DNA from: an uncultured archaeon
GTDB taxonomy: Archaea; Thermoproteota; Nitrososphaeria; Nitrososphaerales; Gagatemarchaeaceae
Length of the DNA: 64,000 nt
NCBI GenBank assembly: GCA_963817525.1
Contig: CAWFOU010000001.1
Coordinates: 576,001-640,000 of the forward strand
Direction of reading: 5' to 3'
Every line of letters begins with the position of its first letter. The stretch's first letter is position 1. The position numbers and the translations under genes were made by a program. Shown piece after piece: positions 1,468 through 33,775 of this stretch. The notes under the pieces are model-generated. The model did no database searches. It had not been told where the DNA came from and saw only the letters and a list, made by a program, of their open reading frames with translations.

Positions 1468-1716
1468 ATGGCGATGAACAGCCTACTCCTGTACCGACTC
1501 GTCAAGGTCGTCCCCTTCGCAACGGCGGCCTTCTCCATTATCCTGATGTCGCACGGCGTCTTCGGAGTTCACGGGGTGCACGTTTCCGGAGACCCGGGAG
1601 GACCCGGAGCCCCGAACACCCACATGGGAATCAACGGGGATCCAGGTGGACCCGGCGCGCCCAACCTTCGCATGACGACAAGTGGGGATCCTGGCGGACC
1701 CGGAGCCCCTAACTAG
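1468..1716 (+). CDS. Putative secreted peptide precursor with 3 x GDPGGPGAPN core repeats
   Basis: N-terminal basic plus hydrophobic segment; three identical decapeptides at 16-aa period encoded with different synonymous codons; start may be the ATG at 1474. Confidence 0.8.
   Translation: MAMNSLLLYRLVKVVPFATAAFSIILMSHGVFGVHGVHVSGDPGGPGAPNTHMGINGDPGGPGAPNLRMTTSGDPGGPGAPN
1588..1713 (+). repeat. Three 30-nt coding repeats (1588-1617, 1636-1665, 1684-1713), 48-nt period
   Basis: GGAGACCCGGGAGGACCCGGAGCCCCGAAC / GGGGATCCAGGTGGACCCGGCGCGCCCAAC / GGGGATCCTGGCGGACCCGGAGCCCCTAAC. Confidence 0.95.
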
Positions 1717-1720
1717 GGCT

Positions 1721-2812
1721 CTATCTCTTTATTTTCATCTTCTGGGGCAGGACGGCCTCCAGGGCCGCCTGTCTTTCGAAGAACCAGCCTCTCTTGCTGT
1801 CGAAGTTCTCGTAGGGTATCGTGTACCAGAACGTGGTCGAAAGGTCGACCGTCCACGTCTTCCAGTCGTCGACGATGTCCTTCAGGCGCGAGTCGAGGAA
1901 GCGGACCGACTCCATGAAGTAGTCCGCCGGAAGAGCCGAGTGGACCTGGTAGTACCCGTCGCTCCGGCCTCCCTCGAACCAGGTGAAGGGGAAATTGTTG
2001 AAGAGAAGCCTGAGCTTTGCGAGGGCTGCCCTTGAGACTCCGCTGAACTCGTAGATGAGACCTGCCGCCTTTGTGAACTCTTTGGGGGTCACAGACGTCC
2101 AGTTGACGTAGTTCGAGCGCACCACGTCGGAGACATGCTTCCTATAGTGCCATCGGACCGTCCTCTCGTTCAGCCTGAGCTTGCGGGCGATCTCCGCGAT
2201 GTTGCGCCACGAGTCCAGCTCGAGCTCCTTTATTATGAGCAGGTCGGTGACGTCAAAGTCCGTCGCCGTCGAGGGCTCCTCCGTCTTGACCGCGCTCGGC
2301 GGAGGCTCGCTGAGCTTCTCGACCTTCGCCCACTCGACCGTCCATTCTCCCGAGCCAAAGTCGTAGTACCTGCTGTTGAGCTCGGGGTTGCGCGACCAGA
2401 CGAGCCGCTGCGTGGTGTATTCGACCAGGATCTTCTTTTTCACGAGGTCGTCTAGGAATTCGAGGAATTGGTCGACGAGCGAGACTGGGACCGCGAAGAA
2501 GGCGAGCTGCCGGCGCTCGACCGCGGCCTTGCACCAGTAGGTGAGGAAGGCGTTGGAGGAAAGGCCCGTTCGGATGGCCGACTCCGAGGCCTCCGCCTCG
2601 CGTGTGAGCTTCATCGACACGAAGTAGCGTTCGAGCCCGAGTGCCGCGTGGTTGAGCGGGGTCCGTACGTTGAGGCCCATGTTCGGGAACCTCTTCTTCA
2701 TGGTGTAGCGTATGGTCTCGGTGGGCATCCCAGTCATGCGGGAGAGGAGGGAGACGTTCTGGATCCCCACGCGGTTTATCGCCTCTATGAGCTTGGTTAG
2801 GTCGGACGGCAT
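1721..2812 (-). CDS. Tandem (double) Lrp/AsnC-like HTH transcriptional regulator
   Basis: Two HTH modules (NVSLLSRMTGMPTETIRY; DVTDLLIIKELELDSWRNIAEIARKLRLNERTVRWH), each followed by a RAM-like region; paralog of 30945-32108. Confidence 0.8.
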   Translation of the reverse strand: MPSDLTKLIEAINRVGIQNVSLLSRMTGMPTETIRYTMKKRFPNMGLNVRTPLNHAALGLERYFVSMKLTREAEASESAIRTGLSSNAFLTYWCKAAVERRQLAFFAVPVSLVDQFLEFLDDLVKKKILVEYTTQRLVWSRNPELNSRYYDFGSGEWTVEWAKVEKLSEPPPSAVKTEEPSTATDFDVTDLLIIKELELDSWRNIAEIARKLRLNERTVRWHYRKHVSDVVRSNYVNWTSVTPKEFTKAAGLIYEFSGVSRAALAKLRLLFNNFPFTWFEGGRSDGYYQVHSALPADYFMESVRFLDSRLKDIVDDWKTWTVDLSTTFWYTIPYENFDSKRGWFFERQAALEAVLPQKMKIKR

Positions 2813-2836
2813 CTAGATCACTTGTGGTCTAATTAC

Positions 2837-2845
2837 CTATATAAT
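2837..2845 (-). promoter_or_regulatory. TATA box of regulator 1
   Basis: ATTATATAG on the minus strand about 25-33 nt upstream of the ATG at 2812. Confidence 0.6.
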
Positions 2846-3269
2846 ATCTGCGGGTTCGTGAAAAGGTGGCGGCCTAGTCCCCGTAGAAGGCAGATTTTTC
2901 ATTCTTCTAGTCGCATACGTGTTATTCTATTGAAATATGAATATTGTCTACATTCGACATGAGAATTGTGGCCATTTCTTGATGCTTGAGCCAACTCCCT
3001 CAGTTTGTCGGAAGAGTGGCTGCCCATGGCTCAGTAGTAGGGCCAATGGCCGGCCTTAGTATCCGGAGTCTAGATTCAGGTTCCACATGAAAGAGCCGCG
3101 AATTACTTTATGCATTTGCTGGCACGACTTAAATTCCTAAAGCAATAATGGACGGATGTAGGGCGGATTCGGTGTCAGAGAAAGTGATCTCGGTTTCAAG
3201 GGAGAACGTGAACCTCAGGCTCGTTATCTCCTTCGAGGACGAAAAAACCCCGGCCAAGAGCTTATCGCG

Positions 3270-3319
3270 ATAAGGGCGGATTCTTCCACTTCATAAGGGC
3301 GGATTCTTCCACTTCATAA
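3270..3319. repeat. Perfect 23-bp tandem duplication ATAAGGGCGGATTCTTCCACTTC x2 plus ATAA
   Basis: Read directly; the AGGGCGGATTC core also occurs at 3160-3170. Confidence 0.9.
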
Positions 3320-3442
3320 CCCATTTCAGCCCGTCGGAAATGCCGACCGCAGACTCCAGCCGCGAACGTGGCGACACGGAGCTGTTGCTCGGAAGAACGA
3401 GGGCTGGCCTGGTCAAGAGACGGAAATCACGGAGGACACCTG

Positions 3443-3979
3443 TCACGGATTGTCATGCGAATCCAATGCCGCGGATGCTATCAACTTGATAAGCTCGGAA
3501 GGGCTTCTTTCTTGGATAGGTTCTTTGTCGAACTCCGCAGTCGCACCGAACTCTCGCTTGATTTCCCTCGTCAGCATGTACTCGAAGACCTTGACCCCAG
3601 CCTCCCCGTAGATGGACTTTAGTCCCTCGATGAACTCATCGGGTTTGTTCGCGATGTCATCCCGTTCAAGATTGCGGGTCACATACAGGTTCCAGAAAAT
3701 GATCTCCTGCGTCTGAGAGCCAGCGCCAATGGCATGAAAGGCTCGGCTGACGCAATCCTTGATCCTGGCCGCGAAGGCAGCCTGTCGCTGTGAGTAGTTG
3801 AAGGCGGCCACCTGGTTGGCATGATAGAGCCCAGCGTTTTTAGGCCTTTGCTCGTCAATCGAGACAGTTGCCGTTTCTTTGATTCGGAGGTACATCGCGT
3901 CATGAATATGCCAAATCGACTGATATCGACATTCTTGCCGTATTCCAGAAGTTCCGACGGAGGTAGAAGAGAACGGCAA
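3443..3979 (-). CDS. DUF3227-like archaeal signalling-associated protein (true start probably downstream)
   Basis: KPDEFIEGLKSIYGEAGVKVFEYMLTREI motif, similar to 23419-23775. Confidence 0.55.
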   Translation of the reverse strand: MPFSSTSVGTSGIRQECRYQSIWHIHDAMYLRIKETATVSIDEQRPKNAGLYHANQVAAFNYSQRQAAFAARIKDCVSRAFHAIGAGSQTQEIIFWNLYVTRNLERDDIANKPDEFIEGLKSIYGEAGVKVFEYMLTREIKREFGATAEFDKEPIQERSPSELIKLIASAALDSHDNP

Positions 3980-4069
3980 GGTCAGCGTAGAGGCAAAAGA
4001 TTGCTCTTGGTCTGAAGATGGAGCAGCAGTTTAGAACAAACTACCATACCGGAATATATCGACGAAAAG

Positions 4070-4285
4070 TTGACGGTTTCTTTGCCCTTGGTGGCTCCCT
4101 CGGACCGGTTCATCCTGTCCAAGACCGACCGGACGGTGATCAGGAAATGCCCATTCTGCGACATTCGACTCGAGGATTTCGTCGGGAAGGATGTCAACTT
4201 CATAGTCCATCTCGGGAATCCAATTCCTTCACACAGAATGAAACGTGAGTGGGCTGATTATGTCACCCGGATGAATCAAGCCTGA
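4070..4285 (+). CDS. Small putative zinc-finger protein
   Basis: CPFC...H...H pattern; ATATAT element upstream. Confidence 0.4.
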   Translation: MTVSLPLVAPSDRFILSKTDRTVIRKCPFCDIRLEDFVGKDVNFIVHLGNPIPSHRMKREWADYVTRMNQA

Positions 4286-4622
4286 ACGCGGAACCTAGAT
4301 TCAGAGTCATGCCAATGTCATGACGAGACGAGCCTTTTCTCCATGAGAATTGATAGGTCACAAGGGTTGACGGGCGCAATATCCGCTCCCGGGTGAGGGT
4401 TTTTCGACAGAGCCTGATTGTGAGCCTATCCCAAGAGAAAGGAGGCCCATCGCGTCGCTCTCCCCGATCTCAACCACCGCGTGGCGCACCGCGCTCGAAT
4501 AGCGCCTCTCTAGTCGAGCCATCCCATACTCACGAGGGGGTTCCCGGTAAAGGCGGAAGGCGTCGTCGATGACAAACGTTTATCTATCCACATTACCATA
4601 AACGTGGACAGCAAGACCAAAC

Positions 4623-4988
4623 TTGATGAATCCGGTATCGGGGATTGAGATAGACCGCTACGTCCGAAAGTATCGGAGAGGGATGGTGAACTCTCTTCTA
4701 GAGTACCTGATTTTGAACCACCTCGAAAAGGAGCCCCTCTGCGGCTACGACATCATAAGACTCCTTCACGAAAGGTTCCACATTCTCTTGAGCCCTGGGC
4801 AGGTCTACCCGGTCATCGACTACATGGCGGCTCAAGGCTTGATCTGCAAGGAGAAGCGCGGCAGGATGGTGATGCTCGCCCTCACCCACCTGGGATCTTC
4901 TCTCTTGCGGGCATGGAAAGAGGAATTCCAGAACATCAAAATTCAGGTGGACAACCTGGCCGCGGAGGAGCTCCACGCTGTATCTTGA
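4623..4988 (+). CDS. PadR family transcriptional regulator
   Basis: LILNHLEKEPLCGYDIIRLL..LSPGQVYPVI. Confidence 0.8.
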   Translation: MMNPVSGIEIDRYVRKYRRGMVNSLLEYLILNHLEKEPLCGYDIIRLLHERFHILLSPGQVYPVIDYMAAQGLICKEKRGRMVMLALTHLGSSLLRAWKEEFQNIKIQVDNLAAEELHAVS

Positions 4989-5102: not shown

Positions 5103-5441
5103 ATGTCGTCGAGTTGGGTAGTCCACAGGTTTCGACGGGCCTTTCTGCAAGAGAACCTGATGCTGATCACCCTCCGGCTTCTCAGGAGGTCGGAGATGAG
5201 CGAATGGGAGGCTTTGGATTCCATCTATTCTCGGTACAGGCTGACCCCCGACGCGAAGGAGTTCAAGAAGGTCCTGGACGTCTTGGTGAGCGGGGGGTAC
5301 GTGAGCTCCGAGCCGGCCGATGATGTCCGCGAGCTTCGGATAACGAGGACAGGTGTGAAGCTGCTCCACGCGCTCGAAGAGGAGTACCGGGCCATCGTCC
5401 TGAGCATCGAGACAGAAGCTCCCGGCCCAATAGCCCGCTAG
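5103..5441 (+). CDS. PadR-like winged-helix protein
   Basis: wHTH wing motif LRITRTGVKLL; TATA-like GTATAA upstream. Confidence 0.6.
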   Translation: MSSSWVVHRFRRAFLQENLMLITLRLLRRSEMSEWEALDSIYSRYRLTPDAKEFKKVLDVLVSGGYVSSEPADDVRELRITRTGVKLLHALEEEYRAIVLSIETEAPGPIAR

Positions 5442-29721: not shown

Positions 29722-29927
29722 AGGCCTTACCTGTGTTGAAGTCACCTCGTTGATATAAAAGCTTGATGGACCTGTGCTCCTACCCGTGTAGAGGGAAAAC
29801 GCGCGACAAATGCATCTTGGAGGGGCGTTGTTTTCCACAAAAGCTAAATAGCTGTAAAAGGCTTGCAACTTAAGCTATATAGCTTCCGGTGTATTGCTTG
29901 TCATCTGAAAGAGATTTCTCGAGACTG

Positions 29928-30836
29928 ATGAAGTTGCAACGGGCGCTGGACAAGTGCCCAAGATGCGGAAAGGGGCCTATGGTCGTCGACAACGCAGGCG
30001 GCGAGCTAGTGTGCAGCAGCTGCGGCTTTGTGGTCAAGGAGAAGATCGAAGAGACGGGCCCCGAATGGAGGGCGTTCTCGAAGGATGAGAAGGACGACAG
30101 ATCGAGGGGCGGGATTCCCACCTCTATCGCCATGCACGACATGGGGCTGGCCACGGTCATAGGTTCCGTAAACAAAGACGCTTCTGGAAAGTCGCTGTCA
30201 GGGTCGATGAAAGCCACCGTCGATCGCCTCAGGACCTGGGACAGCAGGAGCCAGGTCCACGAGCCGATGGACAGGAACCTTAGGCAGGCTTTCAGCGAGC
30301 TCGACAGGCTCTCCGACAAGCTCTCGGTCTCCGACGCAGTGGTGGAGAAGGCTGCTTACATCTACAGGAAGGCGCTCGAGCGGGGGCTGGTGAGGGGAAG
30401 GTCGATCTCGGCGATCATCGCCGCCTCTCTTTACGCTGCCTGCAGGGACAGGGAGACACCGAGGACGCTAAAGGACCTCGCGGTGGTGTCCAACGTGAAG
30501 AAGAAGGACATCGCAAGGTGCTACAGGCTCCTCCTGAAGGAGATGGACATCAAGATGCCCGTGGTCGACCCGACAAAGTGCGTCTCGAGGATCGCCTCCA
30601 GGGCGCAGCTGTCGGAGAGAACCAAGAGGAGGGCGTTAGAGATACTCAAGAAGGCAGAGGAGGCGAGGATATCTGCGGGAAAGGACCCTATGGGCCTGGC
30701 CGCAGCGGCTCTTTACGTGTCTTGCACGCTCGAGGGCGAGGACAAGACTCAGAGGGACGTCGCGGAGGCAGCCGGGGTGACCGAGGTCACCATCAGGAAT
30801 AGGTACAAGGGCCTCCGGTCGGCGCTAGGGATCTAA
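29928..30836 (+). CDS. tfb: Transcription initiation factor IIB (TFB)
   Basis: CPRC..CSSCG zinc ribbon, GPEWRAF, HDMGLAT and GVTEVTIRNRY motifs; start could also be GTG 29889. Confidence 0.95.
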   Translation: MKLQRALDKCPRCGKGPMVVDNAGGELVCSSCGFVVKEKIEETGPEWRAFSKDEKDDRSRGGIPTSIAMHDMGLATVIGSVNKDASGKSLSGSMKATVDRLRTWDSRSQVHEPMDRNLRQAFSELDRLSDKLSVSDAVVEKAAYIYRKALERGLVRGRSISAIIAASLYAACRDRETPRTLKDLAVVSNVKKKDIARCYRLLLKEMDIKMPVVDPTKCVSRIASRAQLSERTKRRALEILKKAEEARISAGKDPMGLAAAALYVSCTLEGEDKTQRDVAEAAGVTEVTIRNRYKGLRSALGI

Positions 30837-30944
30837 CCAATCCCCAGCCGTCCCCTTCATGGTTATGGAGGGCCGGCAATATGGAACACCGTTCCATAAA
30901 CCGTAATATGGTTTCATAATCTATTTCTAATTTGACAGCCGTTC

Positions 30945-32108
30945 TTGAAAATATTGGAGCCGCAGGAGAATATAGAGCAGCCTGACCCCAATGAGAACAC
31001 GCTCGCCCTGGTCAAGCTGATGACTGAGATAGGCCCTGACATCGCGGAGATATCGAGGCGGCTGGGGCAGTTCAAGGAGAGCGTCAGGTACCGGTACAAG
31101 GAGAAGATAGTCAAGCGCGGGTTCGCCGTGAAGGCGGAGCCGGACTACACCGCATTGGGCCTTCGGAGGATCGTCATGAAGCTGGCCGTCTCGGACGAGT
31201 ACTCCTCCCGCGCGTCGCAGGTCTTCGAAGCGATGAGCGATCTCTGCTATCTGGTCTCCTACGCGGGGACCATGCCCAACGGCAGCTACCTTGCCCAGGC
31301 CGCAGTCCCGGTGGAGTTTACAAAGGAGTTTCACGCGCTCGTAGGTGGCCTGGGTGACAGGGGCATATTCTCCTCGGTCGAGCTCTTCGATTGCGACTGG
31401 CACAGGGTCGCTCCCATGCGCGCTGAGTGCTTCGATTTCGACGAGGGCGTCTGGGACTTTGACTGGAGCAACCCCGTGCCCCTCAACGAAAAGGCGGCGC
31501 GAGGCGCGGTCTCGGAGAGGAAGAAGGTCGACAAGGTGGACCTCCTGATCCTGAAAGAGCTATCGAAGGACGGCGGCGCCTCCTTGATGGAGGTCAAGGC
31601 GGCGATCAAGAGGATAAACGGCGTCGACATCAACTACAAGACTTTGGGCTGGCACTATACGCACCACGTCCTGAGCCAGCGGCTGGTCAGCCACTACTCG
31701 GTGGGGTGGCACCGCCTCAACTACGACTTCGAGCGCAACAAAGATGTGGGAACCGCCAGGTACGACTACCTTGGGGTCGTGGTGATGGTCCGTGAGGTCA
31801 ACGGCCAAGAAAGGATGATGCTGAGGAGCCAGATGGACTCCCTTCCGTTCCTCTGGTCAGAGGCGGCAGGCTCCACGTACTTCTCGCAGCTCTTCATCCC
31901 GCTCAACGCGGTGAACGAAGCCCTGGAGCACTTGAAGGCGGTCCTAAAGCCATACGGAAAGAGGGCCGAGCTGCTCTTCCTAGACAAGCGGGAGATGAAG
32001 TACTTTACGATCTGCTATGACCAGTGGGACGAGTCCAATAACCACTGGGCTTTTGACGCGGCGAAGCTTCTGCCGCGCCTGGAAGCGTCACTCTTGAAGG
32101 TAGGGTAA
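30945..32108 (+). CDS. Tandem (double) Lrp/AsnC-like HTH transcriptional regulator
   Basis: Aligns by eye along its length with 1721-2812 (ESVRYR/ETIRYT, ALGL, FDF..G.W..DW, DLLI.KEL, WHY..HV, PF.W.E). Confidence 0.8.
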   Translation: MKILEPQENIEQPDPNENTLALVKLMTEIGPDIAEISRRLGQFKESVRYRYKEKIVKRGFAVKAEPDYTALGLRRIVMKLAVSDEYSSRASQVFEAMSDLCYLVSYAGTMPNGSYLAQAAVPVEFTKEFHALVGGLGDRGIFSSVELFDCDWHRVAPMRAECFDFDEGVWDFDWSNPVPLNEKAARGAVSERKKVDKVDLLILKELSKDGGASLMEVKAAIKRINGVDINYKTLGWHYTHHVLSQRLVSHYSVGWHRLNYDFERNKDVGTARYDYLGVVVMVREVNGQERMMLRSQMDSLPFLWSEAAGSTYFSQLFIPLNAVNEALEHLKAVLKPYGKRAELLFLDKREMKYFTICYDQWDESNNHWAFDAAKLLPRLEASLLKVG

Positions 32109-32122
32109 CTACAGACTAGCGG

Positions 32123-32239
32123 CTAGCCTACTCTTCCGGCAATCTCTAGGGCGCCCACGTGCATTCCGAACGCCGATAGGGCCACAGACGCGAGAGAGAC
32201 AGCCGCGAGGCCGTACCTGACCTTCTGATCAATTTCCAT
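32123..32239 (-). CDS. 38-aa putative secreted peptide precursor MEIDQKVRYGLAAVSLASVALSAFGMHVGALEIAGRVG
   Basis: Hand-translated; TTTATAAA 24-31 nt upstream of the ATG; signal-like hydrophobic core; FGMHV resembles FGVHGVHV of peptide 1; convergent with the regulator. Confidence 0.7.
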   Translation of the reverse strand: MEIDQKVRYGLAAVSLASVALSAFGMHVGALEIAGRVG

Positions 32240-32260
32240 GCCTCATGTGATAGTAATCTG

Positions 32261-32316
32261 GATTTATAAATCTGCGCTTTGCATGATGAAACCGAGATTT
32301 CGCCCATGCGAAATCT
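32261..32316 (-). promoter_or_regulatory. TATA box (palindromic GATTTATAAATC) plus upstream inverted repeat AGATTTCGC-N4-GCGAAATCT
   Basis: Read directly at 32261-32272 and 32295-32316. Confidence 0.6.
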
Positions 32317-32405
32317 AAATCCCGCTTTGAAAGCCTGCTAGAGGAGGCACGGGCCTTCTCAGGAGGGCCTGTGCGGATTCTAACTACGAATGAGCGGCGG
32401 AAGGC

Positions 32406-33539
32406 CTACTTCCTGCCGCTCGAGAAGCGCTTTACCAGCTCGTTCGCGACGATCAATGTCGAGGGGACGCCCAGCAGGAAGACGATGTCCAACGTGGGGA
32501 CGACGTCGAGGAAGCTGCCCGTGCCAGACGTGAAGGGAATCCCATACAGGCCCTGGGCAAGGAACGAGAATACGCTCCCGACGTAGTTTATGGACCAGTG
32601 GAGCAGGACGTCAGCAAGAAATCCGTATTTGATGTAGAGGTAGCCCAGGGCCAGCCCCGCGAGGGCGGCCTCGCTGATCTTCCCAGGCCCCCATCCCGCA
32701 CCGGAGGCATAGTGGGCGTAGCCGAAGATGAAGGAGGAGATGAAGAGGAAGGCGTAGACCACAGGCCGGATGGCTCTCACCTTCAGAGAATCGGAGGAGG
32801 ACTCTGGGAACAGGGACGGCGTGGCGTCCTTGAAAGAGTGCACCGTGATGATGACCCCTTCCTCCTCCTCGACGTCCCACACAGAGGACGGCCGCCAGAG
32901 TGCTCTCGCCGCCTTCACGGGAGAGAAGTCCCTGAACATGATCAGCGATAGGACGAGGACGGGTATCCCTATCATTATGACCCTGAAGGTTGTCTCCTCC
33001 GTCAGGGGGGCGAGGGTGTAGTTCATCAGGAGAAAGAAGGGGTCGCCCGTCAGAGACCCCGTCGAGACGCCCGCGTCCGTCTGGAAGGTGTCCACTAGGA
33101 CGGTGACGAGGCTGGTCGCCCCCAGAAGGACCAGGGTGGCGGACAGACTGTTCGTGAAGAGGGCGCTGTATCCCTTCGAGATCGAGGAGCGGAGCGCCTT
33201 GAGGAGCCCCGCACCCTGGGACGCGGCCAGCAGGAGGAATCCAAAGTAGATCGCCGAGACGACGACAAAGAGCTCGCCGAAGTTCCCTGCCACGGGGACC
33301 TGGAGCGTCGCGAACTCAAAGTCGTAGTTTATCCCCAGGACGGGCGTCGAGGCCGTGTAGTTGTTGGAGAGGTGGGTCCCGAAGACGGTATAGAGCCCGG
33401 CAGGGAACGAGAGGAGCATCATCGCCACGGTGAAGATGATTACCGCGACGAAGAAGAAGAGCCAGTTGGTCTTGGGGGAGGAGAGGGCGCCGCTCGCCTC
33501 GGTCGGCGGCTGCTCGAGAGCTCTGGCCCTGGGAGACAA
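32406..33539 (-). CDS. CPBP (CAAX/Abi) family intramembrane glutamic endopeptidase
   Basis: PLTEETTFR (EExxxR), FGYAH and HWSIN motifs; start taken at TTG 33539. Confidence 0.88.
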   Translation of the reverse strand: MSPRARALEQPPTEASGALSSPKTNWLFFFVAVIIFTVAMMLLSFPAGLYTVFGTHLSNNYTASTPVLGINYDFEFATLQVPVAGNFGELFVVVSAIYFGFLLLAASQGAGLLKALRSSISKGYSALFTNSLSATLVLLGATSLVTVLVDTFQTDAGVSTGSLTGDPFFLLMNYTLAPLTEETTFRVIMIGIPVLVLSLIMFRDFSPVKAARALWRPSSVWDVEEEEGVIITVHSFKDATPSLFPESSSDSLKVRAIRPVVYAFLFISSFIFGYAHYASGAGWGPGKISEAALAGLALGYLYIKYGFLADVLLHWSINYVGSVFSFLAQGLYGIPFTSGTGSFLDVVPTLDIVFLLGVPSTLIVANELVKRFSSGRK

Positions 33540-33544
33540 GTCGG

Positions 33545-33775
33545 CTACGGGTCTCGGCTCTCGGTGCGCTGCTCTTCCTTCTTGGCGTTCGCCGCTTCGT
33601 CCTCGCTCCTCCGGTCCTCGAGGTAGACGTAGCCCTTGTACCCGCACTTTTTGCAGTAATAGTCCTGGGGGACCAGCCAGCCGCCGAGCTCGCTTCCCTT
33701 CTCCAGGGGCGAGAGGCAGTTGACGCAGTACTTTATGACCGGCTTGCTAGGGTTCCTCCTCACGAGGCGGGGCAT
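33545..33775 (-). CDS. Small zinc-ribbon protein
   Basis: CVNC...YYCKKCGYKG; ATG at 33775. Confidence 0.7.
   Translation of the reverse strand: MPRLVRRNPSKPVIKYCVNCLSPLEKGSELGGWLVPQDYYCKKCGYKGYVYLEDRRSEDEAANAKKEEQRTESRDP

Follow-up and report, generated by a model that had tools for sequence, protein, structure and literature searches.

Can an open reading frame (ORF) of only 38 codons be a gene in its own right, and if it is, what could it have to do with the regulator gene whose end it faces? The question is raised by a locus in the genome of an uncultured thaumarchaeon, of which we have analysed a window of 64,000 nucleotides (positions 576001-640000 of contig C1, in an assembly of 2.8 Mb with 61% G+C). 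Here peptide gene 2 (32123-32239, minus strand, 38 codons plus stop) and regulator gene 2 (30945-32108, plus strand, 387 aa, with a TTG start) are placed tail to tail. The stop codon of the peptide occupies 32123-32125, that of the regulator ends at 32108, and 14 nt are left between the two. The same order of peptide and regulator genes is found near the beginning of the window, where peptide gene 1 (1468-1716, plus strand, 82 aa) converges on regulator gene 1 (1721-2812, minus strand, 363 aa) with 4 nt between the ORFs. Regulators 1 and 2 are paralogues (24% identity over ~360 residues, E 1e-27). A first-pass annotation of this DNA had pointed out the minus-strand ORF with its translation, the 14-nt gap and the recurrence of the convergent order beside paralogous regulators, and all of these were found again as described.

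Conservation of the 38-codon ORF

In DNA of this G+C content a lone ORF of 38 codons is uninformative, and it is conservation that makes this one more than a product of chance. Regulator 2 retrieved 30 loci from 41 related genomes, and the peptide was present in 25 of them; among the five loci without it, the sequence of one (L011) stops at the regulator and the copy of another (L023) is frameshifted. The peptide alignment A1 (24 rows, from which the frameshifted L023 copy was excluded) was used as a profile for a six-frame search of the 41 genomes and gave 64 matches at E<1e-5. Most of these copies (58/64) lie at most 600 nt from a regulator homologue, and every one of the 58 is convergent with it. 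The peptide was found beside 50 of the 63 full-length regulators that are at least 33% identical to regulator 2 and beside 2 of the 49 that fall below this identity. Among the GTDB species representatives, 70 of 80 regulator loci have the peptide on the opposite strand just beyond the regulator; ten gave no profile match, one of them being cut at the locus end. The first-pass annotation had made its case depend on whether relatives that keep the regulator also keep the ORF, and the three counts (25/30, 58/64 and 70/80) settle this point decisively in its favour.

The selective regime acting on the peptide is visible in the ratio of nonsynonymous to synonymous substitution rates (dN/dS, Nei-Gojobori), which ranges from 0.07 to 0.52 among the 36 ungapped pairs with finite dS, and from 0.10 to 0.27 between peptide 2 and its two nearest orthologues. 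Judged by this pattern of conservation, the 38-codon ORF is a translated gene under selection. No known RNA accounts for the region, since an Rfam scan of positions 30700-32600 gave zero matches at E<=1.

To judge from the profile searches, the peptide family is small and restricted to one clade. Among 1.84 billion cluster representatives, 91 proteins were matched at E<=1e-3, nearly all of them 38-98 aa long. Neither Pfam nor NCBIfam has a model for the family, and no usable match was obtained in the ESM Atlas. The description of peptide 2 as unannotated holds for the ORF track in which it was missed; public collections already contain the exact peptide as a predicted entry of the 'hypothetical protein' type, and its cluster mates carry the same name. 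Relatives with entries in public databases are metagenome-assembled genomes (MAGs) of Nitrososphaerales/Thaumarchaeota recovered from peat, bogs and acid soils; Candidatus Gagatemarchaeum stordalenia is one of them.

The genome itself contains about six regulator-family loci. The nearest paralogue of regulator 2 (C1:117962-119113, 35% identity) faces a convergent 39-codon ORF that is a plain homologue of peptide 2, a third copy of the peptide is found at the start of contig C2 beside a mere fragment of the regulator, and a fourth, on contig C12, is frameshifted, as is its regulator. The peptide and its partner, a protein with a tandem Lrp fold (see below), make up a two-gene module. Duplication and diversification have given rise to 3-10 regulator copies in each genome, and the module is found in a clade of non-ammonia-oxidising Nitrososphaerota, to which the host, a Gagatemarchaeaceae-type thaumarchaeon, belongs.

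Anatomy of the peptides

A way to approach the role of such a small protein is to dissect it into regions and compare their conservation. Peptide 2 consists of an N-terminal motif that includes KVRYG, a hydrophobic stretch of ~16 residues that runs up to an invariant Gly, a His, and a 12-residue tail of the Leu-Glu...Gly type; in alignment A1, M1 and G25 are invariant. For the family to which it belongs (family 2), the figures given here refer to 68 unique peptides. Their best-conserved part is the N-terminal ~9-10 residues with the KVRYG motif. The uncharged run that follows has a median length of 18 residues, and its hydropathy (Kyte-Doolittle, 19-residue window, median 1.66) lies at the borderline of what a membrane helix requires. 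The stretch closes on a recurrent pattern: Gly is present in 68/68 peptides, preceded directly by Leu, Met or Phe in 64/68 and, two residues before, by Ser, Ala or Thr in 62/68. In the aligned column two residues past this Gly there is His in 36 peptides, Lys in 20 and Arg in 5. The C-terminal module contains Pro, Leu, an acidic residue and Gly-Gly-x-Gly, and it is kept within groups of orthologues and differs between paralogues, also when these are found within one genome.

The peptide of cassette 1 is longer. Its ORF spans 1468-1716, although the start is probably the second ATG, at 1474, as in the orthologues. The product has a basic, hydrophobic N-terminus, a His-Gly-x-His motif and three tandem 16-residue modules ending in GDPGGPGAPN, whose three 10-residue cores have codons that differ at third positions only. 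A convergent ORF of this type was found in 15 of the 15 orthologous loci examined, with the module single in 8 loci, double in 3 and triple in 4. The C-terminal ends of the single-module orthologues resemble those of family-2 peptides. In turn, a doubling of the Gly-x-His motif, as in peptide 1, is seen in the cassette-2 orthologues at ~60% regulator identity.

The first-pass annotation had proposed that peptides 1 and 2 share their layout. The layout is indeed shared, and more extensively than had been noticed; BLASTP gave no alignment between the two, and their relationship becomes visible when orthologues and profiles are brought in. Comparison of A1 with the corresponding family-1 alignment (A3) by hhalign was weakly positive, with a probability of 66% (E 5.7e-5) over 27 columns, and when the A3 profile was run against the 25-200-codon frames of the genome, peptide 2 was the sole other match (E 0.09). 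Going by these profile comparisons, the two families are likely to be distantly homologous. The hydrophobic stretch measures 15-18 residues and the Gly/Pro-rich acidic module behind it ~12-15.

A third form was found in three of the ten GTDB loci that gave no profile match (L126, L127 and L136). Here the usual position and orientation of the peptide are occupied by an ORF made wholly of 3-5 tandem modules with PIGGFGPSY and devoid of the hydrophobic part, and the differences among the module copies are almost confined to third codon positions. One family-2 relative (P0187) also has two full modules. The repeated multiplication of the C-terminal module indicates that it behaves as a unit under selection. 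A weak match to the tail was also given by P0209, a 211-aa metagenomic protein with 7-10 tandem repeats of the HWRPLAAIGG type, which we have set aside as probably an unrelated low-complexity repeat.

The partner protein

In order to characterise the regulator we have modelled its structure with AlphaFold2 from a 64-row alignment. The model (pLDDT 87.4, pTM 0.86) has two successive units in one chain, each with three helices that include a helix-turn-helix (HTH), followed by a beta-alpha-beta-beta-alpha-beta domain. In the Foldseek comparison, single Lrp/AsnC regulators (2cg4, 2cyy, 2pmh, 7fby and others) were matched to each half with probability 1.0 and template modelling (TM) scores of 0.51-0.66 on the target. 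The top match over the whole length was NirDL (4ch7, E 2.6e-9, TM 0.52 on the query and 0.62 on the target, 11% identity).

At the sequence level the relationship is much fainter. The second HTH alone reaches Lrp/AsnC structures when the sequence profile is compared with the PDB (2efo, E 6e-4). Pfam models of the HTH_AsnC type score 12.2 bits for regulator 2 and 22.9 bits (E 7.4e-5) for regulator 1, against a cut-off of 27, and are matched at E<=1e-3 by 16 of the 64 regulator-family members. Zero matches to AsnC_trans_reg (PF01037) or to RAM-domain families were found among the same 64, and no TPR was detected by Pfam in the family or in the structure model. Some members have nevertheless been named 'DNA-binding Lrp family transcriptional regulator' by public pipelines. 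The frequency of the major residue is highest in the two HTHs (0.75 and 0.64) and reaches 0.55 in each of the RAM-like domains; an invariant acidic and aromatic linker motif joins the units, and several Trp residues are invariant. On the evidence of the model, the regulator joins two units of the Lrp fold in an architecture that is new. As its whole-length match, NirDL, is an enzyme, the fold is not always that of a DNA binder, and the partner protein is a putative one.

The earlier annotators had also inferred that the two cassettes are cognate pairs with diverged specificity. Two observations bear on this suggestion: the tails of the peptides vary between paralogues, and the RAM-like domains of the regulators vary more than the HTHs. 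A predicted complex of the regulator (alignment A2) with the peptide (A1) scored 0.01 against a mark of 0.32, a value that weighs neither way on binding.

Promoters and cis elements

Each gene of the cassette appears to have its own promoter. For peptide gene 2, a TATA box, TTTATAAA, is located at 32263-32270 on the minus strand, 24-31 nt ahead of the A of the ATG, exactly where the first-pass annotation had placed it. Its centre lies ~27 nt before the ATG, and the same distance is kept in 8/8 cassette-2 orthologues. Other peptide subfamilies have a TTAAAT-type box at an equal distance, and upstream of the repeat-only ORFs there is a TTAAT-type box as in family 2. Archaeal TATA boxes obey an established rule of spacing to the transcription start, and by this rule the position of the box suggests that the mRNA would be leaderless or nearly so.

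Directly upstream of the TATA box lies a 14-nt element, CATGCAAAGCGCAG on the coding strand (32272-32285, minus strand), which is a candidate binding site of the regulator. Together with the TATA box it makes up a block of ~25 nt that is nearly invariant in the 8/8 cassette-2 orthologues, and the 20 nt before the ATG are variable. The orthologues of cassette 1 have a common upstream block of ~35 nt, with GGTAATAT at its end. A motif, TGCAWAG, was found at -62..-38 in 26 of 88 unique upstream regions of peptide genes (shuffled mean 0.2, maximum 2) and, in a relaxed form, in 44 of the 88 (shuffled mean 0.9), counts that overstate independence because the regions are kin. In each of the three subfamilies for which data are available, the promoters of the peptide genes have an element of this type. 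Along these lines, the TGCAWAG motif and the 32272-32285 element are candidate sites at which the regulator may act.

The upstream region of regulator 2 is unlike that of the peptide gene. It has a 19-nt inverted repeat (30880-30898, plus strand) with a TAATAT box (30903-30909) downstream, which as read from the sequence could serve as operator and promoter. The repeat of the TGGAA-N5-TTCCA type, the GTAATAT and the TTG start are kept in five orthologous loci, those of the eight tried in which an alignment was obtained.

At the other end of the two genes, a G+C-rich hairpin of the GTTCCGG...CCGGAAC type is found between the convergent stops in several subfamilies (L010, L012-L015, L018). Cassette 2 has only its 14 nt between the stops, with neither such a hairpin nor an obvious T-tract terminator, and the two transcripts therefore probably overlap.

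Neighbouring genes

Clustering of the neighbouring ORFs within 1.5 kb, a noisy procedure owing to the shadow ORFs of high-G+C DNA, identified no third gene common to all cassettes. Cassette 2 and its sister subfamily are located between two recurrent neighbours. One is a gene for a CPBP/Rce1-like intramembrane protease (32406-33647, minus strand; PF02517, 40.3 bits against a cut-off of 22.4, E 4e-10), which lies upstream of peptide gene 2 on the same strand, separated by a gap of 166 nt. Its synteny extends to the cassette-2 orthologues (L001-L008) and to L022/L023, and it is absent beside other subfamilies, which makes it a candidate processing enzyme for the cassette-2 subfamily only. The other neighbour is a paralogue of the basal transcription factor TFB (TFIIB; 29889-30836, plus strand), directly upstream of regulator 2. 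A TFB gene is also placed upstream of the regulator in L117, L126-L128, L133, L137, L022 and contig C12, and the genome has nine TFB-like matches. The regulator may control an alternative basal factor.

Elsewhere in the genome there are at least two matches to SBP_bac_5, the family of Opp/Dpp-type binding proteins, and multiple oligopeptide ATP-binding cassette (ABC) systems and secreted acid proteases are among the features reported for Gagatemarchaeaceae (PMC10640624). A route for the import of oligopeptides therefore exists.

Two further observations concern the surroundings of cassettes related to cassette 2. Contig C12 (5800-9600) carries a diverged second copy of the neighbourhood, with a TFB (64% identity), regulator fragments, a peptide and a CPBP protein (37% identity). 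Both its regulator and its peptide are frameshifted. The segment could be a paralogous one in decay, or else the contig is poorly assembled or a contaminant (contamination of the assembly is rated at 8.75%). In the sister subfamily, a conserved protein of ~175 aa is encoded between the position of the peptide and the CPBP gene (L022, L117, L126-L128, L136, L137 and C12:6586-6996).

Comparison with known systems

Among known systems, the nearest to the cassettes are the RRNPP(A) quorum-sensing pairs of peptide and receptor in Bacillota and their phages, and we have compared the cassettes with Rap-Phr, PlcR-PapR, NprR-NprX, Rgg-SHP, PrgX-PrgQ and AimR-AimP. The general mechanism of these systems has been described (PMC4873490), and their published signature is a propeptide of 10-100 aa beside a receptor of 250-500 aa, with an intergenic distance of -50 to 191 bp (PMC10075063). 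In our case the peptide, with its 38 aa and a gap of 14 nt to the partner gene, has the size and place of a small adjacent propeptide at a spacing inside the published range, and the partner has 387 aa, within the size limits of the receptors, and is predicted to be a cytoplasmic protein with HTHs. The charged N-terminus, hydrophobic stretch and short C-terminal part also recall RRNPP propeptides, as do the tandem copies of the module; mature pheromone sequences duplicated within the gene have been documented among them (PMC11343458; PMC10075063). Many diverged pairs per genome are a further point of likeness. RRNPP propeptides are secreted by Sec or PptAB, matured to a short C-terminal peptide and re-imported; of this, the archaeal cassettes offer a charged-hydrophobic-small/bulky/Gly pattern of borderline hydropathy, as far as can be read from sequence.

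There are also clear differences. The receptor fold is a tandem Lrp/AsnC one here and a peptide-binding TPR in RRNPP, the host is an archaeon and the peptide shows unusual conservation at its N-terminus. The archaeal cassettes are always convergent, an orientation that also occurs in prgQ/prgX and in some Rgg/SHP pairs.

With ST1022/Grp, LrpA, PH1519/FL11 and the Lrp and AsnC of E. coli, the set of Lrp/AsnC proteins that we have considered, each half of the regulator would share, going by the predicted structure, the HTH and the beta-alpha-beta-beta-alpha-beta fold. Typical members, however, have one unit of ~150 aa and assemble into dimers or octamers, whereas the regulators described here have two units per chain (363-387 aa) and a family-specific invariant acidic/aromatic linker. 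The known ligands of Lrp/AsnC proteins are amino acids and metabolites. We know of no member that is paired with a peptide gene, and our literature search returned no description of a Lrp-type protein so paired.

NirDL/AhbAB (4ch7, 4czc), the best structural match over the whole length, is likewise a fused pair of Lrp-like units. Its identity to the regulators is, on the other hand, as low as 10-11%, its Pfam families are unmatched in the regulator family, which places these proteins outside it by sequence, and near the cassettes there are no genes of haem or d1 biosynthesis, the neighbours being TFB, the CPBP protease and unrelated genes.

A parallel to the genomic neighbourhood is provided by MroQ, a CPBP/Abi-type membrane protease reported to be needed for the maturation of the AgrD pheromone, whose precursor is small and membrane-associated, in Staphylococcus aureus. 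The gene directly upstream of peptide gene 2 also encodes a CPBP protein, but this neighbour is found only in the cassette-2 subfamily and its sister, and the Agr receptor is a membrane kinase.

Possible roles of the peptide and its regulator

How could these two proteins work together? Tight convergent linkage of two genes that share no promoter suggests selection for the co-inheritance of an interacting pair, and the resemblance to RRNPP systems in four published criteria has led us to rank one explanation ahead of the others. In it the peptide is an exported propeptide that releases its C-terminal module, and the neighbouring regulator senses this module, in a way analogous to RRNPP systems and outside their family. 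We favour this explanation tentatively, aware that it may well prove wrong. The peptide would be made as a propeptide from a leaderless mRNA started at its own TATA box. Its N-terminal part (charged residues, ~12-16 hydrophobic ones and the small-bulky-Gly end) would serve as the export signal and then be removed, and the Gly/Pro-rich acidic module of ~12-15 residues would be freed outside the cell, in several copies where it is tandem. The module would be re-imported via an oligopeptide transporter and would bind to its own regulator at the variable RAM-like domains, and the conserved HTHs would act at the TGCAWAG element by the TATA box of the peptide, establishing a feedback. The regulator could have further targets, one possibility being the adjacent TFB paralogue.

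What speaks for this explanation, with the same reserve, is the combination of an own promoter, a propeptide-like anatomy, tandem modules, exclusive linkage to the regulator and several diverged pairs per genome. Signal-peptidase sites follow an established pattern of residues at -3 and -1, and the small-bulky-Gly end of the hydrophobic stretch fits it, as judged by residue counts. Several facts weigh on the other side. The conserved N-terminal ~9 residues are unusual for a Sec signal and point to a recognition inside the cell, and a short membrane anchor would explain the hydrophobic stretch equally well. In the repeat-only subfamily any export signal is missing. The RAM domains of known Lrp-type proteins bind amino acids or small metabolites and not peptides, and the nearest fold match over the whole length is an enzyme, the siroheme decarboxylase NirDL. 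No exporter or importer gene common to all cassettes was found within 1.5 kb, and the A1 profile detected no peptide beside 13 of the 63 regulators with at least 33% identity or beside 47 of the 49 below it.

Some of these facts would be accommodated by the main rival, a single-pass membrane microprotein that remains whole and binds the regulator, either through its N-terminus or, in the opposite topology, through the C-terminal module. The N-terminal motif is the best-conserved part across paralogues, as would be expected of a cytoplasmic recognition site, and the uncharged run of ~18 residues, with small residues 3-4 apart, could pack as a membrane helix whose nearly balanced flanking charges leave the topology open. 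The signal-less, repeat-only forms fit a module acting inside the cell, and the linkage to the regulator is as tight and exclusive as this role would demand. However, tandem modules that are identical at the protein level are easier to understand as the release of many copies than as a longer tail. In cassette 1, moreover, the N-terminal flank is solely basic, which would keep the N-terminus in the cell and put the modules on the outer side of the membrane, where a cytoplasmic partner could not reach them, and between families 1 and 2 the N-terminal motifs show no relationship. We regard the membrane microprotein as rather unlikely, and give just as little credit to its corollary, a regulator tethered or released by the membrane or by outside conditions such as pH or metals acting through the His/acidic tail. 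It could also be that the peptide is itself the effector, antimicrobial, metal-binding or envelope-related, and its neighbour a local transcription factor, which could well use the conserved element of the peptide promoter. The His and acidic residues that flank the Gly-rich module would suit such a role; a mature part of just 12-15 residues, neither cationic nor amphipathic, would not. CPBP/Abi proteins serve as bacteriocin self-immunity proteins and a gene of this type adjoins cassette 2, but it is linked to just one or two subfamilies. Furthermore, pairs of regulator and target are usually divergent or co-directional and here 58/58 are convergent, and a recognition code would account better for the presence of several diverged pairs in one genome. 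An effector peptide is hence unlikely in our view, and so is a CPBP/Abi-type protein acting as its immunity or processing factor in the cassette-2 subfamily.

Two other explanations appear much more remote. A conserved, leader-like N-terminus followed by variable and sometimes multiplied C-terminal cores is what the precursor of a ribosomally synthesised and post-translationally modified peptide (RiPP) looks like, and since RiPP leader-recognition elements are winged-helix-like, the winged-helix domains of the neighbour could be imagined to recognise the leader. Yet no modifying enzyme (radical SAM, YcaO, lanthipeptide synthetase or cyclase) recurs within 1.5 kb of the cassettes, the modules lack the Cys, Ser or Thr patterns of the common classes, and the repeat-only forms have no leader, leaving this origin very improbable. 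Least credible of all is a toxin-antitoxin-like pair, in which a hydrophobic membrane toxin would be kept in check by the antisense overlap of the transcripts or by the HTH protein. The peptide is indeed small and hydrophobic, with many copies per genome, and over the 14 nt between the stops the transcripts probably do overlap. Such pairs are nonetheless expected to be patchy and mobile, and what we find are syntenic positions under purifying selection across species, extramembrane modules that are conserved and multiplied, and repeat-only forms that are not hydrophobic.

Other features of the window

Past regulator 1, the region 2820-4300 appears by eye to be richer in A+T than the 61% G+C average, and its ORFs are short or doubtful. 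Two small PadR-like winged-helix genes follow at 4623-4988 and 5103-5441, and they are kept beside cassette 1 in its orthologues (L032-L044). Between 25359 and 28719 we have recognised by eye genes for the alpha and beta subunits of an electron-transfer flavoprotein and for a protein of the malate/lactate dehydrogenase type, a content that fits a heterotrophic thaumarchaeon.

Significance of the cassettes

Cell-cell signalling in archaea is little known, and the sole defined archaeal signal cited in a 2025 study of Haloferax (PMC12240190) is a carboxylated acyl-homoserine lactone of a methanogen. Our literature search returned no description of a gene-encoded archaeal peptide signal with its receptor. 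Thaumarchaea of the Gagatemarchaeaceae type are abundant in acidic soils, and the main text of the paper devoted to them contains no mention of Lrp, AsnC or quorum sensing (PMC10640624). Against this background, the module looks like a cassette of adjacent propeptide and receptor, analogous to the bacterial ones, with a receptor whose fold is unrelated to theirs and in a domain of life that is new for them. It is possible, if decidedly doubtful, that the cassettes are archaeal pairs of peptide pheromone and receptor, with several Gly/Pro-rich peptides per cell, each read by its own tandem-Lrp receptor that would switch promoters, including those of alternative TFBs. If this were true, it would be the first quorum-sensing system based on ribosomal peptides in the archaeal domain, and a case of convergent evolution with the RRNPP systems on a different receptor fold. 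The candidate lends itself to experiment, as both genes are small, the predicted mature peptides are within reach of synthesis, the partner is soluble and its fold is modelled with confidence, and the promoter element is defined. Even if the signalling interpretation were wrong, the cassettes would still represent a previously undescribed and strongly conserved family of microproteins, together with a new type of fusion of Lrp-fold units.

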